The notes under the pieces were generated by a model, which made no database searches, had not been told where the DNA came from, and was given only the letters and a program-made list of their open reading frames with translations. From Nitrospirota bacterium (GTDB taxonomy: Bacteria; Nitrospirota; Thermodesulfovibrionia; Thermodesulfovibrionales; Dissulfurispiraceae), in NCBI GenBank assembly GCA_040754455.1, contig JBFMCP010000039.1, positions 1 through 25,916 of the forward strand: a stretch of 25,916 nucleotides of DNA. Direction: 5' to 3'. Position numbers and translations under genes: made by a program. Of this stretch, positions 222 to 14,386 are shown piece by piece. Position 1 is the first letter of the stretch. The number at the start of each line of letters is the position of its first letter.

Positions 222-1643
222 ATGAAAGAAAGAGATATCTTTGAAGAGATCATCAATTTAGGCAAGCGGCGCGGCGTGCTTACCTATGATGAGATAAATG
301 AAGCCCTTCCCTCTGAGTTCTTCTCTCCCGATGAACTAGAAGACCTCATGGACGTCCTCAATGATATGGGCGTCAAGGTCGTCGACTATGAGGAGTCCAT
401 TCTGGCAGAAGAGGAAGCAGAGGAAGAAGTAGAAGAATATGAGAGAGCGGAAGACCTTGTCCAGGCATATTTCAATTCCATGGGTGACATCTCCATCCTC
501 ACCAAGGATGAGGAGACCACGCTGGCAAAAAAGCTTGAGCAGGGAAGAGAGATCATAAAAGGAACCATCTCTGCGCTTCCCATTTTCGAGCATATAAAGA
601 ACAACCTTGAAGTAGAGGACGAAGAGGGGATCACTACTGAAGAAGAGAAGGCCGATGAGGCGTTGATAAAGACCCTCTCGAGACTCGAAGAGTTAATGGA
701 AGTCGTTGAGAAGGCCGATAGCAAAGTCAAGAAATACGGCTACCTGAAAGGACTGAAGGCAGCAGTCAACGAAAAGAAGAAAAAAGGGACGAATGCAAAA
801 AAGCTGGAGCTCCTGCTGAAAGAAGTTCAGGCAGATTACAAAAGAGTAGAGCAGGAAGTCGGCATCAAAGTCGATGCCCTGAGAGACCTGTGGAACAGGA
901 TATCCAAAGCGAGATATCTTGTAATAGAGACCAAGAATGAGCTTATCACGAGGAACCTCAGGCTCGTTGTCAATATTGCAAAGAACTATGTCGGAAGAGG
1001 GCTTCCCCTGCTGGATCTTATCCAGGAAGGAAACATCGGCCTGATGAAAGCCGTCGACAAGTTCAAATATGAAAAGGGGTTCAAGTTCAGCACCTATGCG
1101 ACCTGGTGGATACGGCAGGCGATAACCCGTGCACTCATTGATCAAACGAAGACAATACGTGTTCCCGTGCACATGATGGAGTTCTACAACCGTGTGACCA
1201 AGGCATCGAGAGAGCTGACCCAGCAGGTAGGGAGAGAACCTACCAACGAAGAGATTGCGAAGAAACTGCTCGTGCCGGTCAGAAAGGTTGAGGAGGTTTT
1301 CAGGGCGATTCAGGACCCGATCGCGTTACAGACACCAATTGGCGATGAGGATACAGAACTCGAAGATTTCATCGGCGACAAGACGAGCCCTTCACCCTAT
1401 TCCGATGCAGAGCGGATCGAGACCTCCGAGCAGATCCAGAGGGTGTTGAGAACGCTGACGCCCAAGGAAGAGACCGTTATCCGTATGCGATTCGGCATCG
1501 GCGTCGACCGTGACCACACGCTCGAAGAGGTAGGACGATATCTCTCGATTACGAGAGAGCGTGTACGCCAGATCGAAGCAAAGGCGTTGAGGAAGCTGAA
1601 ACACCCGAGCAGATTGAGAGCACTGAAGATACTCACCAGCTAA
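222..1643 (+). CDS. rpoD: RpoD/SigA-family sigma-70 factor with region 1.1, possibly a divergent paralogue
   Basis: Region 1.1 (GKRRGVLTYDEINEALP), region 2 (NLRLVVNIAKNY..RGL..LDLIQEGNIGLMKAVDKF...GFKFSTYATWWIRQAITR), region 4 HTH (TLEEVG....TRERVRQIEAKALRKL). Start moved to ATG 222 because the TTG at 81 lies inside the rRNA. Confidence 0.92.
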   Translation: MKERDIFEEIINLGKRRGVLTYDEINEALPSEFFSPDELEDLMDVLNDMGVKVVDYEESILAEEEAEEEVEEYERAEDLVQAYFNSMGDISILTKDEETTLAKKLEQGREIIKGTISALPIFEHIKNNLEVEDEEGITTEEEKADEALIKTLSRLEELMEVVEKADSKVKKYGYLKGLKAAVNEKKKKGTNAKKLELLLKEVQADYKRVEQEVGIKVDALRDLWNRISKARYLVIETKNELITRNLRLVVNIAKNYVGRGLPLLDLIQEGNIGLMKAVDKFKYEKGFKFSTYATWWIRQAITRALIDQTKTIRVPVHMMEFYNRVTKASRELTQQVGREPTNEEIAKKLLVPVRKVEEVFRAIQDPIALQTPIGDEDTELEDFIGDKTSPSPYSDAERIETSEQIQRVLRTLTPKEETVIRMRFGIGVDRDHTLEEVGRYLSITRERVRQIEAKALRKLKHPSRLRALKILTS

Positions 1644-1662
1644 ATCACTATACACCTAAAGG

Positions 1663-1693
1663 AAAAGGGGCTGCTTTTGGCAGCCCCTTTTTT
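1663..1693. terminator. Bidirectional intrinsic terminator between the convergent rpoD and LysM genes
   Basis: AAAAGGGGCTGC-TTTTG-GCAGCCCCTTTT perfect 12-bp stem with A and T tracts on either side. Confidence 0.9.
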
Positions 1694-1716
1694 ATTGGAT
1701 CATTTTGTTGGAGACT

Positions 1717-2739
1717 TTAGTTCCTGAACTGATCTCCGGCCTTGATCTCTTTGATCGACTTTTTCACCAGCGCAACAGAGGCCTTAGCACTTGCGTTGAT
1801 TATCTGAAGCGTACCGATGGTGATATGAGGCTGGTCACCGGTAATTACATTGAAAACATCACCAACTTCTATACCGTCGCTGCTTCCTTTATCCAGGTAG
1901 GCGAATTCTTCCTGGCCGATTATGCTCCGATCAATGTTTACCTTTACGATCATTCCATTCAGGGGCGGTCTTTTCTCTGCAAGCGGTTCCAGGGGCAGCT
2001 CCACAGTATAAAAGGGAATAAACGCATCTCCTTTTACTATCTCTCTGTACGACTCCAGGATTACCGCCCTTTGATTGCCGGTATCTTCGCTGGTTGTTTC
2101 GATCACCCCTTTGATTCTGACGAGATAGCCGAGCACGGCCTCGGTCTTAGGATGGACCATCCTTTCAGGTTCGCTTATGACATAGAATTTTGTTGCGAGC
2201 GGAGCAGGATTCTTGATAGTAATGAACACCGTATCACCACATCCTGCAAGGCCATAGTCTTTCATAGAACCCTTTATCTCGCCCGCTCTCGTCACCTCAC
2301 TTACAACAGAACCGGCCTGCAAGAGAACCTCTTTTGACGTCAAATACTTTCTCGTGGCAACCGGGACTTCTTTGGGGGACACTTTCCGGGGCGTGATCAC
2401 CCGTCCAGTCACCTCGATCTGCTTCTCCTGTTGTGTCTCTTGCCCTTCTTTCTCTAACGGCTGTCCCTTCAGCTCCTGCTTCGCCATCTCTCCGGGGATC
2501 GCCAACTGCTGCCCAGGATATATCCAGTGCGGGTCCTTTATATGGGGGTTCGCCTTCCAGAGTTTCGGCCACTGAAAGGGATCTTTTAACGTTGCAGTTG
2601 CGATGTCCCACAGCGTATCACCTTCTTTTATGGTATAGGTTACGTCTTTCCCCTCCTCTGCCATGAGGGGGACCGTACATATCCAAAGAAACAGCACCAT
2701 AAAAAATAGAACGTTCTTATGTGTTACCTGAATGCTCAT
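1717..2739 (-). CDS. Secreted LysM peptidoglycan-binding protein (TsaP-like architecture)
   Basis: N-terminal hydrophobic signal peptide, LysM motif YTIKEGDTLWDIA...WPKLWKANPHIKDPHWIYPGQ, beta-rich C-terminus (YLDKGSSDGIEVGD); GGAGG SD upstream. Confidence 0.85.
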   Translation of the reverse strand: MSIQVTHKNVLFFMVLFLWICTVPLMAEEGKDVTYTIKEGDTLWDIATATLKDPFQWPKLWKANPHIKDPHWIYPGQQLAIPGEMAKQELKGQPLEKEGQETQQEKQIEVTGRVITPRKVSPKEVPVATRKYLTSKEVLLQAGSVVSEVTRAGEIKGSMKDYGLAGCGDTVFITIKNPAPLATKFYVISEPERMVHPKTEAVLGYLVRIKGVIETTSEDTGNQRAVILESYREIVKGDAFIPFYTVELPLEPLAEKRPPLNGMIVKVNIDRSIIGQEEFAYLDKGSSDGIEVGDVFNVITGDQPHITIGTLQIINASAKASVALVKKSIKEIKAGDQFRN

Positions 2740-5628: not shown

Positions 5629-6999
5629 ATGGATCAGCACGAGGTTTCGCGGAGAGAATTCCTGAAGGTGCTGGGTGCCGTTGTCGTAGCTGCACAACTC
5701 CCCTCCTCTTTCGCTGAGGTGTTTGCCCGGGATATCGGTGCGCTCGACCGCGTCTTCATTGCCAATGAGGATTCCAATACCATAAGCGTGATCAACCCCG
5801 CAAGCAACGTCATTGAGACCACGATCAACCTGACCAGTTTCGACGAAGACCCACGGCCTCCGTTCCGTTTCGTCACCGCAGGAGTGATGCCCACGCATGC
5901 CGCCATGATCCATAAACCACTCTATCACGGCTGCATTGACGCCCATGGGGTGGTGCCGTCTCCTGACGGACGCCTGCTGGCGACCTGCGGCAGGGGATCG
6001 GGCAATGTCTATCTGATCGATACCACGAACAAAAAAGTCATCGGCAATTCGCCGAATCCGTCAGCATCAGCTTCGACCAATGCCGAGCGGCTGACGAGCG
6101 GTATTCTGGTCGGGCGCGAGCCGCATGAGCCGACATTCACCAGAAACGGCAAAGAGCTCTGGATCGCCATTCGCGGAGAGAACAGGATCGCGATACTTGA
6201 TGTTGCCGGAGCGATCAAGCAGTCCGAAGGAGCGCGGGGGAGCTCGATCAAAAGGTATATAGGCACCGTAAACGGGCCCTCCCAGGTGTGGTTCAATGCG
6301 AAAGGCACCCTCGCCTTTGTCGCAAGCCAGAAAGCTTCCTTAATTGATGTATTCCGTGTGAATCCCAATGCCAAGGGATATTCCAATCCGACGCGGCTCT
6401 CTACTATCGATATCAGCCAGCAGGACAAGCCGGGCTTTACGCCGTTCCTCAAGACCGCTCCCGGCGGCACCGAGGTCTGGTTCTCCCACAAGCTGGCGGA
6501 CGCGGTATCAGGGCGCTCGACAACCGAGCCCTTTGCCCTGCTCGATGTCGTTGCGCTCGGCAACATGGCAAGGCCCAACCACTTCGAATTCGTCGAAAAC
6601 GCAAAAGGCAACGTTATGTATGTCAGTCTCGCACGGGTTGATGACAACGGCCCCGGCGGGGTGGCATCGAGCCAAATTGCGATCATCGACCGCAGCGCAG
6701 CACCGGGCAGTCGGAGGGTGGTCGGGACCTTCTTTTCTCACGGTCGCGAGGCGCACGGACTCTGGACAAACCCGGCAAACAATCTCCTCTATATCGCACA
6801 TGAACAGGACGAGCTGCCCGGCACGCCGAATGCCGGACAGACTGTGGCGAGCGCCTTCGACGTCTCCGATCCTTTCGCGCCGAAATTCATCGCCCAGATA
6901 CCGCTCGGCAGCCTCAAGCTCCCTTCGGGTGAATTAAGGAACAAAAAGAGCATCAACCTCGTTTATGTGCGCCCCGGCTATAAGGGACAGACGGCATAG
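5629..6999 (+). CDS. Tat-exported YncE/YVTN-like beta-propeller protein, His-rich
   Basis: Twin-arginine motif SRREFLK plus hydrophobic stretch; propeller blades (RVFIANEDSNTISVINP, HGVVPSPDGRLL, EPHEPTFTRNGKELWIA, GPSQVWFNAKG, EAHGLWTNP). Confidence 0.8.
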   Translation: MDQHEVSRREFLKVLGAVVVAAQLPSSFAEVFARDIGALDRVFIANEDSNTISVINPASNVIETTINLTSFDEDPRPPFRFVTAGVMPTHAAMIHKPLYHGCIDAHGVVPSPDGRLLATCGRGSGNVYLIDTTNKKVIGNSPNPSASASTNAERLTSGILVGREPHEPTFTRNGKELWIAIRGENRIAILDVAGAIKQSEGARGSSIKRYIGTVNGPSQVWFNAKGTLAFVASQKASLIDVFRVNPNAKGYSNPTRLSTIDISQQDKPGFTPFLKTAPGGTEVWFSHKLADAVSGRSTTEPFALLDVVALGNMARPNHFEFVENAKGNVMYVSLARVDDNGPGGVASSQIAIIDRSAAPGSRRVVGTFFSHGREAHGLWTNPANNLLYIAHEQDELPGTPNAGQTVASAFDVSDPFAPKFIAQIPLGSLKLPSGELRNKKSINLVYVRPGYKGQTA

Positions 7000-7009
7000 G
7001 GAGAAGATC

Positions 7010-7474
7010 ATGCGATATCTCTCTATCTTATTGCTCGGCGTGCTGCTCTCCAATGCAGTCTGGGCAGAGGACCATGCGCATCAGAAATCATCGCCCGCGC
7101 CGCAAAGTCCGGCGCCCGAACCGTTCCAAAAAGAGATGAACGAAGGTATGGAAAAGATGATGCACGATATGCACGCCCGGGGATACACAGGGAATCCCGA
7201 CATCGACTTCCTGAACATGATGATTCCCCACCACCAAGGCGCCATCGAGATGGCCCGGCTCGTCCTCGTCTACGGCCGCGATCCGATAACACGGATGCTC
7301 GCTGAAGAGATCATTGCAAGCCAGCAGGTCGAAATCGATGCAATGAAAAAACGTCTTTCCATCCTCCGCAGCCGAAAGGCTACCGACCCGGAAGAGTTCC
7401 CTGCTCTCGGCGGCACCCGGGGAAGAACGGAACCCAGCGACGGAGGACAGAAGACAGTACCGGAGAAACAGTGA
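7010..7474 (+). CDS. Secreted DUF305 / CopM-like Met/His-rich helical metal-binding protein
   Basis: Signal peptide; MNEGMEKMMHDMH; GNPDIDFLNMMIPHHQGAIEMA...LAEEIIASQQVEIDAM DUF305 signature; start ATG 7010 with a GGGAG SD. Confidence 0.85.
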   Translation: MRYLSILLLGVLLSNAVWAEDHAHQKSSPAPQSPAPEPFQKEMNEGMEKMMHDMHARGYTGNPDIDFLNMMIPHHQGAIEMARLVLVYGRDPITRMLAEEIIASQQVEIDAMKKRLSILRSRKATDPEEFPALGGTRGRTEPSDGGQKTVPEKQ

Positions 7475-7494
7475 TATATCCCTGAGGTGAGGAA

Positions 7495-7827
7495 ATGAAA
7501 ATCTGCTTATCTATTGTGGGCGCAGCAATAGTCTGTCTTATCCTCTTAACGTCTGGATGTTCGACAATAGAGAGGACCAATTGGAAGGTCATCCAGGAGG
7601 ATGCCTATCACAACACGTTTTCTTATGACCCGGGGAGCGTCGAACGTACATCTGCCGGCACTGTTACGGCAAGGGCAAGTTCCGACGGCTCGAAGTATCG
7701 GTACGAGATAGACTGCAAGGGTAAAAAGATGCGCATCCTCGAAGGCCACGGCGCTGACCCGGCGCGTTGGATTGCTATCGTGAGCGGCTCAGGGGACCAA
7801 CTCCTCTACAATGAAGTATGTCGATAG
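7495..7827 (+). CDS. Small hypothetical lipoprotein (surface-adhesin-E-like motif pattern)
   Basis: Lipobox LTSG-C; W...YDPGSV...YEIDC...W..I..GS....LYNEVC pattern; GAGG SD. Confidence 0.7.
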   Translation: MKICLSIVGAAIVCLILLTSGCSTIERTNWKVIQEDAYHNTFSYDPGSVERTSAGTVTARASSDGSKYRYEIDCKGKKMRILEGHGADPARWIAIVSGSGDQLLYNEVCR

Positions 7828-7854
7828 TTAATCGATACGCGAAGCATATTATCT

Positions 7855-7886
7855 TTGGAGAAGACCGCGTAAAACCGGTCCTCCAA
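7855..7886. terminator. Imperfect hairpin between the convergent lipoprotein and radical SAM genes
   Basis: TTGGAG-AA-GACCG / CGGTC-CTCCAA inverted repeat; no strong U tract. Confidence 0.35.
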
Positions 7887-7891
7887 TAGCC

Positions 7892-9199
7892 CTATTTCCT
7901 CCATACCCCCGCCCCCGGCTCGTAGCTGCAGAGCCAATGATGGGCATCTAGAGAACCCTTCCATTCAATGGTTCGAACCAGGCAGGCCCGACATCCGAGC
8001 CTGAATTCACAGGCCGAGCATGATGTGATGTCGTTTCGCGCTGTCGCAGCAAAACGATCGAAGAAACCTTGTCCGAGAATGGTAGCGAGGCTCTCCTCGG
8101 CAAGGCTAGCGACAGCGATCTTCCATCCCGGACAAGGTTTGACAGCGCCATCGGCGCCAATAAAGAGTGCGTTATAAAAACAGTGATGGCGCTGGCTGTT
8201 GATCATGAATTGCCTGAGATCCACGGCCATATCAGCAGGTCCCTGCGGGGCGACAACATTCCTGATATGCTCCGGGGTATGCTTTCCGGGAAGGCCGTAG
8301 ACAAGAAATTTAATCCCTACAGCCCCGTGGGATACAGCAAAATCCGCTGTGGCAATTGCCGCCTCTTCGCGACCGATCCGGGCAGGTATTTTTGCGGTAA
8401 ATGCCACGCCCCGGGAAGCAAAACGGCTGACTGCATTGAGCAGGGAATTATAGCCGGACGGGTGCCGTACTGCACGATTGAAGGCCCGCGTATTCGAGGC
8501 GGCAAAAGGCATGGCGATGCGCACATCAAAAGAGCAGAGGCGCTCTATCATTTCGCAATCGATTACTCCGGTCGTGTGCAGTTCGCTCTTCATTCCGAGA
8601 CGAGCGGCAAGCTCGAGGAGCTGCCAGAGCCTGTCCGCCTCTCTGAAAGGCTCACCGCCAGCAATAACCAGACGGTCAAAGCCGAGAGACCGGAGCAACT
8701 CGACACTCCGGACAATCCGCTCCATGGGGAGCATGGATATCTCTGTGTCGGTCTTCGGCGACACAAAACAGCCGCAGGGCTCGGCAGCAAGCGCACCTTT
8801 GGAAGCACACCATTCGCAATCATAAAGGCACTCCCTGGCAAGCTCGATCGTGACACTGCCCCCCTGGAAGTTAAATCCCTCTTTCTTGATCTGTGCATCG
8901 AGTGCCCAGGGCCGGTAGCCTTCTGTAGCAAAGGGATACGGCGCATACCGTCCGACATGCAGGCTGATCAATGCATCGATATACTGCCTGAGCTCATCAT
9001 ATCGAAGGTGGCTTCGCTCTGCCGCCTCCTCAATCGATCTTCCTTTAGCCAGGAGCGCCAGCGCTTCGGATATCTCCTGCCTGTTAAACCAGTAGAGCTT
9101 GCCGTCGAAAAGGTCGTGAACAACGGAACCATGCACGCCGCGGACAAACTGCGTATGCGGCAGAAACACAAAGTAATTATTGTTATCGGAATGGATCAT
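7892..9199 (-). CDS. Radical SAM/SPASM-domain protein 2 (putative peptide maturase or partner)
   Basis: CxxxCxxC (CLYDCEWC), AGGEP, SPASM C...IGADGAVKPC...CSACEFRLGCRAC...C; N-terminal beta-beta-beta-helix segment resembling a RiPP recognition element; start overlaps the upstream stop (TAATG). Confidence 0.85.
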   Translation of the reverse strand: MIHSDNNNYFVFLPHTQFVRGVHGSVVHDLFDGKLYWFNRQEISEALALLAKGRSIEEAAERSHLRYDELRQYIDALISLHVGRYAPYPFATEGYRPWALDAQIKKEGFNFQGGSVTIELARECLYDCEWCASKGALAAEPCGCFVSPKTDTEISMLPMERIVRSVELLRSLGFDRLVIAGGEPFREADRLWQLLELAARLGMKSELHTTGVIDCEMIERLCSFDVRIAMPFAASNTRAFNRAVRHPSGYNSLLNAVSRFASRGVAFTAKIPARIGREEAAIATADFAVSHGAVGIKFLVYGLPGKHTPEHIRNVVAPQGPADMAVDLRQFMINSQRHHCFYNALFIGADGAVKPCPGWKIAVASLAEESLATILGQGFFDRFAATARNDITSCSACEFRLGCRACLVRTIEWKGSLDAHHWLCSYEPGAGVWRK

Positions 9200-10773
9200 T
9201 ACCTGACATCCAGAAAACGGTAGCGGTCTACCAGAGGATCGCCGAAAGAGAGCGCATCCGGTACTTCTTCGAGAAGAGAATAGAGCGTGACCAGCTTATC
9301 AAGGACGACAGCGCGGGCAAAGCGGCACTGCTCCTCGGGGAAGCGAAACCCGCCGTCACGGCCGACATGCGCAAAGCAGAGATGGCACATACCGCGCGCC
9401 CAGCAGTTATTACAGGACGGCAGGGATGCAGCGTAGCGCCGCATCACCTCGTTGCACCGCTCCACATTGACCCCCTCATGAACAGAGCCTATCGGGAACT
9501 CCTCGGATATCCGCTCGCATATGTGGAAGGCACCGTCGGTAGACACGGTCAATCTCCTGCCCGGTTGACAGGTGCCTGTATAATGGCCCTGACATCCTCC
9601 ACCGAACTTCATGATCCGGCTATAGACGCCGATGAGTGATTCCTCAACGTAGTGATAGAGAAAAGAGCCCTCGGGCACAGGGATCTTATTACGCTTGCGG
9701 GTGAAATACTCATCCAAAATGCTGCTGTGCAGCTGTTGATAGCGGCGGGAGTCAAAAGGAAAAAACTTGTGAAAATCACCGGTCGCCAGATCTCGCAGAA
9801 TGTTCACGAAGGCGATTTGCGGGGCCCTTTGCCCTGGATCATCGAAGAAGCGCAAGATCGCCTCCAGGTCGGAATTCCCGTTGATCGTCACCAATGCCCG
9901 CACCTGCTCATTGAAGTATGCTTCGTCCAGAGAGCGGAGCAATTCCAGGTTGCGCCAGACTGCATCAAAAGTCCCCTTTCCCGAAGGGAAACGGCGATAG
10001 CGGTCGTGCTCGCTCGCTGGCCCATCGAGACTGCAGTTGATGCCGATGCGATTGCTCACGAGAAAATCGGCTGCCCTTTTCGTGAGCGAGGTAAGATTGC
10101 TCGTTACTGAAAAGTGCAGCTTGAAGCGGCCATCGTTCCGCGAGCAGGCATACCGGATGACCTCTTCCAGCATGTCGCTGCAGAGCAGAGGCTCCCCTCC
10201 GTAAAAACTTATATCGAGCTTGCGGTCCGGGATCGAGCGGAAGTAATCCGTATCATTGAGAGATAAGAAGATATCGATCGCCTTCCGTGCCGTCTCCCAG
10301 GACATAAATGATTTACCGAGAGGGCTGAAGCCTTGGTAAAGACCCGAATAGATGCAGTAATCGCAGCGCAGATTGCAGTCTTTCGTGAGCACGAGGATAA
10401 GATTGCTCAACGTGCTCGGGGCAGGTGTCCACTGGAGAGGCTGTGTACAGGAGCGTTCGCGATCATCCGTTGTTCCGGAAATGCGGCCCGGACAACCGCG
10501 GTGCGATGCGCCGAAGGCGCGGGCGGTACGGCGCCACTTAAGCATATACGCGCACAACGCTGAGACGCCGTTCTCTTCAGCGACAGCAGCCCTGAGCGCA
10601 TCATCGCAGTCCTCGTAGAGCGCAGCACATTGCTCCCCGGATACCGGTTGGAACAGGGGATGGGCAGTGAGCGTAGCGGCATCAAAGAGATACTGTGCGC
10701 CTGAACGGGTGGTAAAGATCAAAAAATGAGGATGCTCAAATACCGATGCATCCTTCGCAACCGGAGAATTCAT
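9199..10773 (-). CDS. Radical SAM/SPASM peptide maturase 1 (resembles CcpM / GG-Bacteroidales-type Cys-rich peptide maturases)
   Basis: LTKDCNLRCDYCIYSG (CxxxCxxC), SFYGGEPLL, TSNLT, SLDGP..EHDRYR, SPASM GTCQPG..L.VSTDG.FHICERI...IG...CNNCWARGMCHLC...C; N-terminal RRE-like region. Confidence 0.92.
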   Translation of the reverse strand: MNSPVAKDASVFEHPHFLIFTTRSGAQYLFDAATLTAHPLFQPVSGEQCAALYEDCDDALRAAVAEENGVSALCAYMLKWRRTARAFGASHRGCPGRISGTTDDRERSCTQPLQWTPAPSTLSNLILVLTKDCNLRCDYCIYSGLYQGFSPLGKSFMSWETARKAIDIFLSLNDTDYFRSIPDRKLDISFYGGEPLLCSDMLEEVIRYACSRNDGRFKLHFSVTSNLTSLTKRAADFLVSNRIGINCSLDGPASEHDRYRRFPSGKGTFDAVWRNLELLRSLDEAYFNEQVRALVTINGNSDLEAILRFFDDPGQRAPQIAFVNILRDLATGDFHKFFPFDSRRYQQLHSSILDEYFTRKRNKIPVPEGSFLYHYVEESLIGVYSRIMKFGGGCQGHYTGTCQPGRRLTVSTDGAFHICERISEEFPIGSVHEGVNVERCNEVMRRYAASLPSCNNCWARGMCHLCFAHVGRDGGFRFPEEQCRFARAVVLDKLVTLYSLLEEVPDALSFGDPLVDRYRFLDVR

Positions 10774-10801
10774 TCCGTATGCCGGTTATCCGCAGATACG
10801 G

Positions 10802-11293
10802 TTAAAACGCTTTTGCAGCATGGCCTGCTACGGCTCCGGTCGCTCCCAGCGCAGCAGTAAGGGTTGCAGCGCAGGCGCTGCAGAGAGCGCAGGCGGTACA
10901 GGCGGTACACAAGTCGCACTCTGCGACAGGGCCGAACTTGTCGACAATCTCTGACGGAAGCGCCGAGGAAAAGCCTGAATCTTTCAGAATCTTAATATAA
11001 ATCCTATAATAATCTGCGGGCTCGGGCTCTTTTTTCGCCATCAGTGCCATAACCTCTTTCTTTAGCTTCTCTTCATTCTTGCGGATTTCCTGATAGATGG
11101 CACGATCTATGCTGTTGGCAACTGTTCCCGTTTTTGTGAGCTTAACCAGTTTTCCAAGCGTTTCCTGTGCTGCTTTTTTTGCCGCCTTTGCTTGTTCAGG
11201 GGTGCTCTTTTTGCTCCGGTAGTCCTTCCCGAAATCCTCGACAACCTTAATTTTCTTTGCAGCAGCAGCCGGCAGCTTTTTTACCACTGGCAT
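10802..11293 (-). CDS. Putative RiPP precursor: long Lys-rich leader plus six-Cys (Cxx)6 core
   Basis: Strong SD AAGGAGG; first gene of the operon with two rSAM/SPASM genes; all six Cys at residues 126,129,132,135,138,141, followed by an Ala/Gly/Thr-rich tail. Confidence 0.8.
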   Translation of the reverse strand: MPVVKKLPAAAAKKIKVVEDFGKDYRSKKSTPEQAKAAKKAAQETLGKLVKLTKTGTVANSIDRAIYQEIRKNEEKLKKEVMALMAKKEPEPADYYRIYIKILKDSGFSSALPSEIVDKFGPVAECDLCTACTACALCSACAATLTAALGATGAVAGHAAKAF

Positions 11294-11494
11294 AGGATTT
11301 TCCTCCTTATCAATTGTTATAAGGAGTATTTAGCACAAAAAGTGAGGGAAGTCAAGCTGTTGTCACTCGATCCACTATCATCTTAAGAGAGGAGTGCCGA
11401 TCGCTGATATCAATTTAATCGATCATCTTAAAGAACGATCTCTTGAGTGATGGGCAGGTCTTGTCTTTTGAAAAAGTAAGTGAGGACATTTATC

Positions 11495-12607
11495 TTACCC
11501 CCATCGCAACTCCAGCGTATTGTCGTTACGCAGAGCCACTTGCGTTCCCAGTCTGCGCCCCTCTCTGTTCAAAACTTCATTCAGCCACAGCGCTTCCTCT
11601 TCCGATGCTCGGTTCACCCTAAAGCGCCGCATCCGTGTCGGTGTCATCCGTAGACGGACAAGCTTTCCGTTCAACGGATCAACGCTGGCGAAGTACATTA
11701 AGCTCAGGTCGCCCCTGAAGAATTCATAACCGCTGATGCCCTCGTAGTCGGTCAGGAAATCGCCGCAGCCGTAGAGGATGAGCTTGTTGCTGTATACTTC
11801 GATTCCCTTCACGTGATGGGAGGAATGTCCATGAACGACGTCAATGCCGGCGCTGTCGATCAGTGCATGGGCAAACGATCCCTGCTGGCGAGGGATATCA
11901 TAGCCCCAGTTGCTGCCCCAATGGATTGAGGCAATGACGATATCTCCCGGTTGCTTCATCTGCCGGACAATATAGTCGATGTCTTTCACCCTCTCAAACG
12001 AGAGATCGGGCAGAAAGTTCACGCCCGGTCTGTCTTTTGCGGCAGCCCATGTTTCGGGAATGCCGCTCGTTTCAGAGCCGAAGGAAAATACGACGACTCT
12101 TCCCTTGCCGGCAATCTCCTTTATTGCAGACGCTTCAGCCTCCCTTATAGTACGCCCTGCTCCCGCATACTGTATCCCTGCGCGCTGCAAGGTCTCGATC
12201 GTCTCAATGAGGCCCGGATATCCCCAGTCGAGAACATGGTTGTTGGCGAGTGCGCAGATGTCGATCTTTGCTGCGGTAATGCACGGAATGTTCCCGGGAT
12301 GCATTCGGTAATTGATGCCCTTGTCGAACCAATACTCGTCGCTCTTTGTTACAGCGGTCTCCAGATTGATAATTCTTGCATCCGGCGCTAACCGCTCCAG
12401 CTCATCAAAGGCCTCGCCCCAGATATAAGGGAAATCGACCGGCTTCTGAATCGGGCCGTTCACTTGCTCTGCAAGTTGTACGTAGATCCTTGCATCCCCT
12501 ACGTAAGGCTCGTAGAGCACCGGATCGCTCGGGTGGGGCAGCACCTGGTCGATGCCCCTCCCGGTCATCACATCACCGCACATGAATATAGTGATAGGGC
12601 CGGTCAT
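11495..12607 (-). CDS. CapA-family (poly-gamma-glutamate synthesis-like) metallophosphoesterase-fold protein
   Basis: GDVMTGRGI, INLE, LANNHVLDWG, SIHWG, VHGHSSHH, YGCGDF motifs; no signal peptide. Confidence 0.9.
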   Translation of the reverse strand: MTGPITIFMCGDVMTGRGIDQVLPHPSDPVLYEPYVGDARIYVQLAEQVNGPIQKPVDFPYIWGEAFDELERLAPDARIINLETAVTKSDEYWFDKGINYRMHPGNIPCITAAKIDICALANNHVLDWGYPGLIETIETLQRAGIQYAGAGRTIREAEASAIKEIAGKGRVVVFSFGSETSGIPETWAAAKDRPGVNFLPDLSFERVKDIDYIVRQMKQPGDIVIASIHWGSNWGYDIPRQQGSFAHALIDSAGIDVVHGHSSHHVKGIEVYSNKLILYGCGDFLTDYEGISGYEFFRGDLSLMYFASVDPLNGKLVRLRMTPTRMRRFRVNRASEEEALWLNEVLNREGRRLGTQVALRNDNTLELRWG

Positions 12608-12646: not shown

Positions 12647-14386
12647 CTATATATTTGTGAAACAGGCAGTTCCATTCCCATCAGCAATCTTCCAGATAAG
12701 CTCGAAATTGCAGATGATGACTAATGGATTGCCGGTTGCATCCTTCACGATCTGTCCGTTGCCGTCGGTGGCGAGGAGCAGGTCATTGGGCTTTAGTAAC
12801 GAGCCGTCATACCCCGCATTTCTGAGATTCTCTTTCACCTTGTCCAGCATCATCCGGCATTGCGCCTCATCGATAAGGCCCCGATCAACGGCCTTGGCAA
12901 GATCGACCGGCACATGGAGCGGGCCGACCTGCTCGGCGACCCAGTGGTCGGGGCCGTTGTAGTAGCCGCGAATGGTAATATAGTTGTGGTTCTCCTGCAG
13001 AATAGGATTGCCATCAGGATCCAGGATATTCTTATGTGATTCGTATCTCCTCAGGTCCGCCGATGCCTCAACCTTGGCAGTGCCGGTCATGTAGATCGCC
13101 CTTACATAGACGCAGGGGATGCCGAGCTGATTCAGCGTATGGGCAATGGCAAATTCTTCAAACGGGCTGTTGATGCCGAATTCGCGGATCTTTGCCGGAT
13201 GCTCCTCCTCGCTCTCCCCCGGCAGCTCGCCGACTCTCGAGGTCTCCCAGACGAGATGAATGTTATCCTTAGTGATGGTGTAGAAGACCTCCTTGTTTTC
13301 AGACAATCTGATGGAAGGGGTTTTCCTCCACCGCTCAGGAAGGAAGTAATCGAAGAGCCGTGCATTCTTGCCCACCACCCACAGATGCCCGCCGGTGCTT
13401 TCCGCATGACCGTAAATGTAGGGTACGCCGAAGATCTCCATGCTCGACAGATGGGGGGGCAGCGGCGTCGGAATAAAACGATCCCGCTGATCATCCAGAT
13501 AGGAATGGCGTCTGCAGCTCTTGACCTGCTCTTCGTGATCGGCGGTGCGGAGCAGGAGTTCATAATCGACGATTGAATATTTACCTGTGTTTATTACCTG
13601 ATACAAATGATCAATCTGATCCTTTGAGGGGTCGATTACGGGCATCTTTCCGATATCTTCAACGCGCTTTGCATCATCCTCACTGATAATGATATGCTCC
13701 GGCTTCATATCCGCCACCAGATATCCCTTTTTATCGAGATCGGCCATGACATGGCGATTGAGTTTTGACAGATGCAGGGTGCGTTCATCATCGTTGATAT
13801 CGATATGCCCGAAGACTTCCTTGAGATTATGCCCTTCGATCCATTCATAAATCATCTTGTACTGTTTGAGGATGTCGAGATCGATGCCGGGATGTTTTGC
13901 GTGAATACGGTTGATTCGGGCCTTCGATCTTCCGCTCTGCCATGGCTGCATCCTTTCGGGCGGCACATAGATTGCCAGGGGGCGCTGCGTATTTATTTTC
14001 AGCTCCCGCGGGCCGAGCCGGTTCTCCCGCATCTCCATAACCAGAGAGAACTCCTCCCAGGGGCTGTTGAATTCGGCATCGCAGAATTCCTGCAGCGTGT
14101 GGGTGTTGAGCGGAACGTCTTCGCCGACACGGCAGTTCTTGACAACAAGATCGAGGCTCTTGCCGTACACCTCCTTTGTCGGCAGCCGGTAGACGGAGCC
14201 GGTGCCCTCGAGCCTTACTTTGTGTCTGTTGAACCATTCTGCTTCATACCAGTTATTCGTTTCGAGATGCTCTTGGTACTTCTCGGCAAACCGGGTGAGA
14301 TAGAGATCACCGCCGTCGAGAGTTTTAAAGTGGGCATAGACGACCCCCAAGACATTGACGAGCGTTTTTCTGGAGGTTTTATGCAT
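12647..14386 (-). CDS. Hypothetical protein made of two tandem protein-kinase-like repeats (intact N-terminal, degenerate C-terminal)
   Basis: Repeat 1: EGTGSVY, LVVK, NSPWEEF, ADMKPEHIII, IVDYE. Repeat 2: LVWE, NSPFEEF, SLLKPNDLLL, ICNFE. Confidence 0.7.
   Translation of the reverse strand: MHKTSRKTLVNVLGVVYAHFKTLDGGDLYLTRFAEKYQEHLETNNWYEAEWFNRHKVRLEGTGSVYRLPTKEVYGKSLDLVVKNCRVGEDVPLNTHTLQEFCDAEFNSPWEEFSLVMEMRENRLGPRELKINTQRPLAIYVPPERMQPWQSGRSKARINRIHAKHPGIDLDILKQYKMIYEWIEGHNLKEVFGHIDINDDERTLHLSKLNRHVMADLDKKGYLVADMKPEHIIISEDDAKRVEDIGKMPVIDPSKDQIDHLYQVINTGKYSIVDYELLLRTADHEEQVKSCRRHSYLDDQRDRFIPTPLPPHLSSMEIFGVPYIYGHAESTGGHLWVVGKNARLFDYFLPERWRKTPSIRLSENKEVFYTITKDNIHLVWETSRVGELPGESEEEHPAKIREFGINSPFEEFAIAHTLNQLGIPCVYVRAIYMTGTAKVEASADLRRYESHKNILDPDGNPILQENHNYITIRGYYNGPDHWVAEQVGPLHVPVDLAKAVDRGLIDEAQCRMMLDKVKENLRNAGYDGSLLKPNDLLLATDGNGQIVKDATGNPLVIICNFELIWKIADGNGTACFTNI

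Follow-up and report, generated by a model that had tools for sequence, protein, structure and literature searches.

What can two radical S-adenosylmethionine (SAM)/SPASM enzymes make from a Cys-bearing precursor that is itself the size of a small protein? This question is raised by three tightly linked genes on the minus strand of a 25,916-nucleotide stretch of DNA (the window) from a Nitrospirota bacterium (GenBank assembly GCA_040754455.1, contig JBFMCP010000039.1). A sequence-only reading of this DNA had proposed a cassette for a thioether-type peptide that is ribosomally synthesized and then post-translationally modified (RiPP). The answer that we favor, at a probability of about one half, is that the cassette makes a nested-hairpin sactipeptide of the thuricin/thurincin type from a protein-sized precursor, as a pro-antibiotic that is released by a protease. 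For this cassette the gene order, the co-occurrence of the genes, the selection acting on them, the grouping of the enzymes and the geometry of the core are established.

A conserved three-gene cassette

The precursor gene (10802-11293, minus strand) encodes 163 amino acids and is followed after a gap of 28 nt by the gene of the first radical SAM/SPASM enzyme (9199-10773, minus strand, 524 amino acids). The gene of the second radical SAM/SPASM enzyme (7892-9199, minus strand, 435 amino acids) is joined to the first by a TAATG stop/start overlap at 9199. Coordinates, gap and overlap are as had been described, and so is the strong Shine-Dalgarno sequence; AAGGAGG (11302-11308, minus strand) can be read from the sequence 8 nt ahead of the precursor ATG.

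The same three genes are present in another genome of the same genus, G001. The DNA homology between the two genomes covers 7891-11357 with 81% and ends there; the immediate neighbors of the cassette differ on both sides. No RNA record was listed for the region, and the DNA contigs that match it are short, identical pieces. An alignment of the two genomes contains, at the start of this block, a probable sigma-70-type promoter (11327-11355, minus strand), with TTGACT at 11355-11350, a 17-nt spacer and TAAATA at 11332-11327. The -35 box and the spacing are conserved in G001, and the site was not listed by a consensus scanner; it may be the promoter of the cassette. The ratio of nonsynonymous to synonymous substitution rates (dN/dS) in this one genome pair is 0.072 for the precursor, 0.135 for the first enzyme and 0.198 for the second, and purifying selection acts on all three genes. 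A 6-bp inverted repeat between the precursor stop and the start of the first enzyme (10774-10801, minus strand) is not more stable than shuffled sequences (z -1.2 and -0.3); its stem is conserved between the window and G001 and its loop differs.

Genomic context is available for 5 of the 23 enzymes in the clade of the first enzyme (see below), namely in the window, G001, L008 (Deltaproteobacteria), L009 (Chloroflexi) and L010 (Defluviitaleaceae); these loci span Nitrospirota (twice), Deltaproteobacteria, Chloroflexi and Bacillota. In all five, which are intact, a long precursor with a leader of 109-146 residues lies directly upstream of the first enzyme gene and the gene of the second enzyme lies directly downstream. 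The proposal of a thioether-type RiPP cassette, in which radical SAM/SPASM enzymes adjoin a Cys-bearing precursor, is borne out by these five loci, and in the same five the homologous enzyme pairs co-occur with long open reading frames (ORFs) that end in (Cxx)n-containing segments. A sixth precursor, P0236, is known without genomic context.

Leader, Cys arm and tail of the precursor

Residues 1-125 of the precursor (10919-11293, minus strand) form a Cys-free leader or pro-domain, which is predicted to be all-helical and has a net charge of +10. They are followed by a Cys donor arm, residues 126-141 (10871-10918, minus strand), with six Cys at i+3 spacing, and by a putative acceptor arm, residues 142-163 plus stop (10802-10870, minus strand), which is a small/hydrophobic tail with Phe as the last residue. 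The precursor had been described as a protein of 163 amino acids with all six Cys in a C-terminal run. Length and number are right and the Cys do lie together at 126-141, but the run is not C-terminal, since an Ala/Gly/Thr tail of 22 residues comes after it.

This is the sole six-Cys i+3 run among 60,350 six-frame stop-free stretches of at least 30 amino acids in the genome; five-Cys runs of this spacing occur twice and four-Cys runs 16 times. The six Cys columns are invariant in all six family members, which carry six or seven Cys (four are seven-Cys members). Their leaders are Cys-free and 103-146 residues long; in nine peptides of eight clusters with short leaders the first Cys is preceded by 2-29 residues. 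In the precursor of the window there is neither a signal-peptide-like stretch nor a double-Gly before the core.

The tail length follows the number of Cys. The six-Cys precursors have tails of 22 and 22 residues, the seven-Cys precursors tails of 25, 25, 24 and 25. In thurincin H the bridges are C4-S28, C7-T25, C10-T22 and C13-N19 (PMC8172795), a register in which the first acceptor is six residues past the last Cys and further acceptors come at every third residue. On this register six Cys need a tail of 21 residues and seven Cys a tail of 24. The tail is long enough for nested rings in all six intact precursors, which are few and partly related sequences. A conserved Asp or Glu at i+4, the PapB-type CX3D/E, is not present; a single Glu occurs among all the i+4 positions of the six intact precursors.

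None of the six family precursors reaches any NCBIfam or Pfam cut-off, and none matches the NHLP or Nif11 leader models of these collections at E up to 1. Ten precursor motifs likewise gave no match in the complete Precord table of 3,421 precursors. The earlier claim that the precursor falls outside known types agrees with this, as does that of a non-Firmicute host with the Nitrospirota label on the precursor of the congener. Neither the literature searched nor the Precord table yielded an account of such a precursor, although one could exist in subscription papers or in supplements that were not read. The long leader in five of five loci, the selection on that leader, the six or seven Cys with a tail that just matches them and the lack of an adjoining ABC transporter in the loci scanned look new.

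The first enzyme

Both enzymes carry CxxxCxxC, GGEP and SPASM Cys, as the sequence-only reading had noted, and the SPASM set is a full one of seven Cys; in the first enzyme the SPASM pattern is Cx11Gx4Cx34Cx2Cx5Cx2Cx16C. Pfam Radical_SAM scores above its cut-off in both enzymes and Pfam SPASM in the second enzyme only. The N-termini of both resemble RiPP recognition elements (RREs), as judged from the sequence pattern and from alignment to the N-termini of TrnC and TrnD orthologues.

Neither enzyme reaches the cut-off among the NCBIfam families listed. The best equivalog score of the first enzyme among those listed is with CcpM (215 bits, cut-off 500), and the TrnC orthologue behaves alike (207 bits of 500); true CcpM members among the collected loci score >500 bits and form a separate clade with support of 100/100. 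The first enzyme also lies below the cut-offs for the GG-Bacteroidales family (TIGR04148, 167 of 300 bits), for the ranthipeptide families SCIFF/CteB (95 of 425), PapB (143 of 340) and QhpD (130 of 453) and for TIGR04463 (46 of 525).

The phylogeny of the first enzymes was estimated in two ways from a total of 157 rows, with LG+G4 on 46 rows and with a mixture model and more outgroups on 38 rows. In both trees the first enzyme belongs to a clade of 23 distinct sequences with a support of 100/100. The LG+G4 tree groups this clade with TrnC and the HuaA-class enzymes (99/98). With the mixture model, a group comprising the TrnC, HuaA-class, RumMC, CcpM and GG-Bacteroidales enzymes is split at 100/100 from the ranthisynthases (SCIFF, PapB, QhpD). 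A specific sister relation between the first enzyme and TrnC was dropped because the mixture-model tree leaves it unresolved.

Six catalytic-proximity positions are given by Precord et al. (PMC10288494); they were mapped from CteB via the alignment. They read IYTSER in the first enzyme, IYTSEK in the TrnC orthologue and in a HuaA-class enzyme (L159) and IYTSEK/R in RumMC-like enzymes, as opposed to FFTSHQ or YFTSHR in members of the SCIFF, PapB and QhpD families (FFTSHQ in the SCIFF family). Position 5 of the first enzyme is hence Glu and not His or Gln. Where the sequence-only reading had cited sactipeptides and ranthipeptides alike, the thioether class stands, and the enzyme group and core geometry favor sactionine over ranthionine. 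The first enzyme, TrnC-like, is a probable catalytic sactisynthase.

The second enzyme

With the second enzyme as query, only two matches were obtained from 72,556 plasmid records, both to thuricin-CD-type second enzymes (E 5e-12, 91% covered) and both from the same Bacillus cereus cluster type, L168. Judged by its sequences, L168 is orthologous to the thuricin CD cluster. The first enzyme there has C114, C118, C383, C400, C404, C437, C440, C446, C449, C464, R370 and K372 as in TrnC, with the numbered Cys and R370/K372 of TrnC taken from PMC12093266; one of its peptides is TrnA of the Precord table but for two residues, and its peptides match the Trn class there. The profile comparison of the second enzyme with the TrnD type gave a probability of 100, a value that is partly circular because the alignment includes a close TrnD relative.

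In thuricin CD the proteins TrnC and TrnD associate in a complex, and only the radical chemistry and cluster of TrnC are essential (PMC12093266). The second enzyme of the window is without TxN and SxDG motifs, and CxxxCxxC is lost in 2 of the 14 aligned relatives (L018 and L112). By analogy it is probably a TrnD-like helper and not a second catalyst, that is, a non-catalytic or secondary partner.

Some related proteins are worth recording on their own account. D-like partners without CxxxCxxC but with retained SPASM cysteines are encoded in L018 (7475-8755), L112 (2488-3753) and L169 (6486-7727); they adjoin short Gly/Ala-rich Cys peptides and ABC transporters and look like pseudo-enzyme versions of TrnD. 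All 14 of the 14 aligned D-like proteins share an extra Cys about 13 residues past CxxxCxxC (residues 142-144 in the second enzyme of the window). Among the long-leader members this Cys is part of a CxC, and it might serve as a ligand of the radical cluster or block it.

Relatives and distribution

The leader of the window precursor is homologous to those of L008 and L009 (z 16 and 19.5, 0 of 2000 shuffles); clear homology links all three (z 16-23, with 0 of 2000 shuffles), and they have the pattern DRAI...N...P.P.DYY.IY...L.DSG in common. The Bacillota-type leaders of L010 and P0236 match each other (z 19), and the window leader gives z 0.7 with L010 and z 3.3 with P0236. A leader piece from L094 is the only sequence that links the two subgroups. 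These sequence comparisons give only weak support to one common origin of all the long leaders. The trees of the first and second enzymes give the same long-leader grouping, with supports of 100/100 and 100/99, respectively.

With 3-5 candidates scored per genome in all samples, the cassette was found in 2 of 401 Nitrospirota genomes, both of the same genus. Three further samples of 301, 399 and 301 genomes contained no new carrier: the class of G415 gave 4 of 301 (three outside the clade), the class of G416 gave 1 of 399 (G416 itself; two genomes of this class were not scored) and the phylum of G414 gave 1 of 301 (G414 itself). This patchy presence across phyla suggests horizontal spread.

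The cassette copy in L094 (about 5900-9630) is itself riddled with frameshifts; its precursor has five Cys and is encoded past the gene of the second enzyme, on the other strand. In L119 an 81-amino-acid short-leader precursor (1632-1877, plus strand), with eight Cys at i+3 and a tail of 36 residues, precedes a pair of C- and D-like genes and an ABC transporter; it may be an exported equivalent of the long-leader family. Other paired radical SAM/SPASM clusters, several of them from Aminicenantes records (L095, 1008-5228; L011, L014, L017 and L032), have short, polar Cys peptides that are not like a hairpin core.

Points that weigh against a released sactipeptide

Several observations do not sit easily with the answer given at the outset. 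With respect to the chemistry, the CcpM- and GG-Bacteroidales-family enzymes also read xYTSER at the proximity positions, and Phe, as in ranthisynthases, stands at position 2 in 9 of the 23 clade enzymes. A specific grouping with TrnC did not reappear under the mixture model with more outgroups, which placed the clade in an unresolved 33-row group that includes the CcpM- and GG-Bacteroidales-family enzymes, for which no chemistry was found in the literature examined. The tails consist to 60-73% of Gly, Ala, Ser and Thr, and therefore the identity of the acceptors cannot confirm the register. The genomic context comes from 5 of 23 clade enzymes.

The role of the partner is affected as well. CxxxCxxC is retained in the partners of all four aligned long-leader relatives, and the SPASM set is full whereas that of TrnD is truncated; the partner may therefore be catalytic.

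The remaining points concern release. No cleavage motif is conserved ahead of the core across the family precursors. A motif scan found no ATP-binding cassette (ABC) ATPase (Walker-A) motif in the whole window, and the single Peptidase_C39 match of the genome, which is 100% complete by markers, is a 193-amino-acid frame and not a transporter fusion. The missing ABC motif and the sole short C39 frame sit badly with a secreted antibiotic. In the same kind of scan the ABC ATPase motif was found in none of the five long-leader loci, as compared to 13 of 15 other related loci (the flanks of L008 are short and L094 is frameshifted). Among the flanking ORFs, 27 were selected, and no Pfam family of transporters or leader peptidases is conserved in them; two D-Ala-D-Ala peptidases occur in L010 alone and an AI-2E transporter in L009 alone. 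Of the other four carriers, three encode long C39 proteins elsewhere in the genome. There are no export or cutting genes beside the cassette, and the product may therefore work differently from the known antibiotics of this type.

Alternative readings

The most serious alternative is that the leader is never removed. The product would then be an intracellular or membrane-tethered protein, a helical domain with a six- or seven-fold sactionine-stapled tail, comparable to QhpC/CrpA and not an antibiotic. Within the genus of the window, purifying selection acts more strongly on the leader than on either enzyme: the leader's dN/dS against G001 is 0.077 (core 0.031; again one genome pair), and the constraint is even along its length, with 0.078 for residues 1-57 and 0.065 for residues 58-110. 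The leader is also recognizable across three phyla, and the lack of a signal peptide, a double-Gly and a conserved cleavage site, together with the absence of ABC ATPase motifs from the five long-leader loci in the scan given above, points in the same direction. Thioether-modified proteins have a precedent, in clusters without a known transporter (PMC13692751). On the other hand the core resembles those of secreted sactibiotics, the short-leader, eight-Cys version in L119 adjoins an ABC transporter, and a distribution as patchy as 2 carriers among 401 Nitrospirota genomes would suit an accessory conflict trait. Long C39-domain proteins are present elsewhere in three of the five carrier genomes, and large structured leaders that remain leaders are known (NHLP; PMC12537861). 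We consider a permanently retained leader doubtful, yet worth keeping in mind.

Structure predictions for this leader are of low confidence. Two AlphaFold2 models are helical with a mean pLDDT (the local distance difference test, as predicted) of 47.7 and 57.1; Foldseek returned nothing at E <= 0.001 and the ESM Atlas no usable match, and a wide structural search with the low-confidence model, which bears on a fold shared with NHLP, Nif11 or borosin-binding leaders, gave generic helical pairs only (best Z 6.5).

If the protein does stay uncleaved, a tentative scenario can be drawn, which we likewise regard as rather unlikely. A lineage of thuricin-type machinery would have traded the short leader, the transporter and the protease for a folded domain of 100-150 residues and would staple an uncleaved protein with a six- or seven-rung sactionine ladder. 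The N-terminal domain could then be the functional body or a built-in self-protection, and the three genes would be a self-sufficient unit that was passed among Nitrospirota, Deltaproteobacteria, Chloroflexi and Bacillota.

A second alternative places short local rings within the Cys run, from each Cys to a residue 3-5 positions away and through the alpha or the beta/gamma carbon, with the tail as an unmodified membrane anchor or follower. The i+4 residues after the Cys of the window precursor (T, T, A, S, A and L) could serve, the tails reach Kyte-Doolittle 19-mer means of 1.1-1.9, and CrpC joins Cys to motifs close by that contain Met/Val and no acidic acceptors (PMC13692751). The unresolved sister relation to TrnC leaves some room for such rings. 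However, the i+4 residues vary freely between family members, and the first enzyme stands outside the SCIFF/PapB/QhpD group at 100/100 with Glu in place of His or Gln at proximity position 5. The dependence of tail length on Cys number also speaks against local rings, and we regard them as improbable.

That the Cys run is an uncrosslinked metal or Fe-S binding segment, with both enzymes acting elsewhere or only loading clusters, is very improbable: CxxC repeats are common metal ligands, two family members have a weak zf-CXXC match far below significance (E 0.48) and in L008, but at no other locus, the cassette is followed by a 4Fe-4S protein, but both enzymes fall into peptide-maturase groups, the core is like thurincin H in Cys spacing and tail, and no metal-handling neighbor is conserved across the loci.

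Neighboring genes

A CapA/PGA_cap metallophosphoesterase gene upstream of the precursor (11495-12607, minus strand) was considered as a tailoring epimerase and rejected, with 57 of 700 bits on the MslH model. It was rejected as a part of the cassette as well; it is missing from that place in G001, and none was present in the flanking ORFs scanned at the other loci.

Farther upstream, a 579-amino-acid ORF (12647-14386, minus strand; L007 11219-12958, minus strand) is conserved in G001 and reaches the cut-off of no Pfam family. It has two internal look-alike segments, NSPWEEF and NSPFEEF, and appears by eye to be a tandem kinase-like protein. A 59-bp piece of the window (7769-7827) matches L007 (9531-9589) with 81%. 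In the window it is the 3' end of a small ORF beyond the far end of the cassette, in G001 it lies just upstream of the precursor, and the match hints at a rearrangement at the cassette edges. Beyond it (5629-7474, plus strand) a beta-propeller protein with a weak match to a twin-arginine translocation (Tat) signal is followed by a DUF305/CopM-family protein; this possible copper-handling pair was not seen at that place in G001.

Proposed mechanism

We return to the protease-released hairpin, for which the following course can be proposed; the chemistry, cleavage and function of the product are what we infer from the data above. The precursor would be transcribed from its own promoter ahead of both enzymes, and the TrnC-like and TrnD-like proteins would, by analogy, work as one complex. 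The conserved helical leader may, again by analogy, be a docking domain as well as a solubilizing pro-domain for a very hydrophobic core. The TrnC-like enzyme would abstract alpha-hydrogens on the Ala/Gly-rich tail and join up to six Cys sulfurs to it in a nested ladder. A guess that uses the thurincin H register gives roughly C141-A147, C138-G150, C135-G153, C132-A156, C129-A159 and C126-A162. The stapled hairpin of 38-40 residues would stay on the pro-domain until a general protease frees it, with neither transporter nor protease provided by the cassette, and it could then act on membranes like other sactibiotics. Release and membrane action are the weakest step of this scheme. Hairpin sactionine chemistry as such, under the pro-antibiotic and the domain-retaining readings together, is distinctly likely.

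If the hairpin is real, the cassette contains a sactisynthase pair of natural origin whose product has six or seven nested alpha-thioethers, as compared to three or four bridges in the nested sactipeptides of the literature examined, and its three genes would offer a compact means of making long stapled hairpins. The pair also bears on the role of the second enzyme, which has been open since the 2025 work on thuricin CD: the SPASM set is full here and some relatives are without the radical cluster. Furthermore, the cassette poses the question of whether the end product of a sactionine pathway can be a protein and not an exported antibiotic. Searches that require a neighboring transporter or a short precursor would miss the long-leader family.

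Comparison with known systems

The two coupled enzymes had been presented as part of a candidate new system. This part of the proposal is overstated, since the pair is TrnC/TrnD-like, with precedents in thuricin CD and thuricin Z/huazacin that had not been named; by sequence it matches TrnC/TrnD of thuricin CD and is a known type of pair. Clusters of the TrnC/TrnD-like sort had been noted earlier beyond the Firmicutes (PMC3132745).

Thuricin CD (TrnA/TrnB with TrnC/TrnD; PMC12093266) has the same order of precursor, C-type and D-type radical SAM/SPASM enzyme. The proximity residues are nearly the same (IYTSER versus IYTSEK), the C enzymes have the same seven-Cys SPASM pattern, and in both systems a Cys arm precedes a small/hydrophobic tail with a hydrophobic end. 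In contrast, the window has one precursor and not two, 125 instead of 21-23 residues before the first Cys, and a set of six Cys spaced i+3 where thuricin CD has three at i+4 (CX3CX3C). It is without the double-Gly and without an adjoining ABC transporter or S41 peptidase, both of which L168 has. Its D enzyme retains the full seven-Cys SPASM set, and the identity is only about 27% and 20%. Thuricin Z/huazacin (ThzA with ThzC/ThzD; HuaA class, Precord et al. 2023) likewise combines two distant radical SAM enzymes per precursor type with a nested hairpin, but its leader is short, its four bridges are at i+4 and its cluster includes transporters (PMC8172795). The short leader, the CX3C spacing and the transporter are not found here, and therefore the cassette is not filed as a member of the thuricin CD/Z family.

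Two other kinds of system share the protein-sized substrate. CrpA/CrpC and QhpC/QhpD (PMC13692751) have an N-terminal domain and a C-terminal Cys-rich region beside an RRE-radical SAM-SPASM enzyme; those systems form ranthionines with one enzyme, whereas the enzyme of the window is outside the QhpD group. In the NHLP/proteusin and Nif11 precursors and in ProC8, the precursor of halocin C8, a large N-terminal part precedes a small hydrophobic core, and in ProC8 this part is an immunity protein (PMC11509114). The precursor of the window differs from them in that it has no NCBIfam or Pfam match at cut-off, no double-Gly and no Tat signal, and the parallel with ProC8 is an analogy only.

The closest core is that of thurincin H (ThnA/ThnB), with Cys at i+3 and acceptors that begin six residues past the last Cys and recur at every third residue. 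The likeness lies in the core; thurincin H has four bridges and a precursor of 40 amino acids, and its cluster combines one enzyme, of the twitch type, with a protease and an ABC transporter (PMC8172795). By analogy, the cassette most likely works like thuricin CD and thuricin Z with a thurincin-H-like core.

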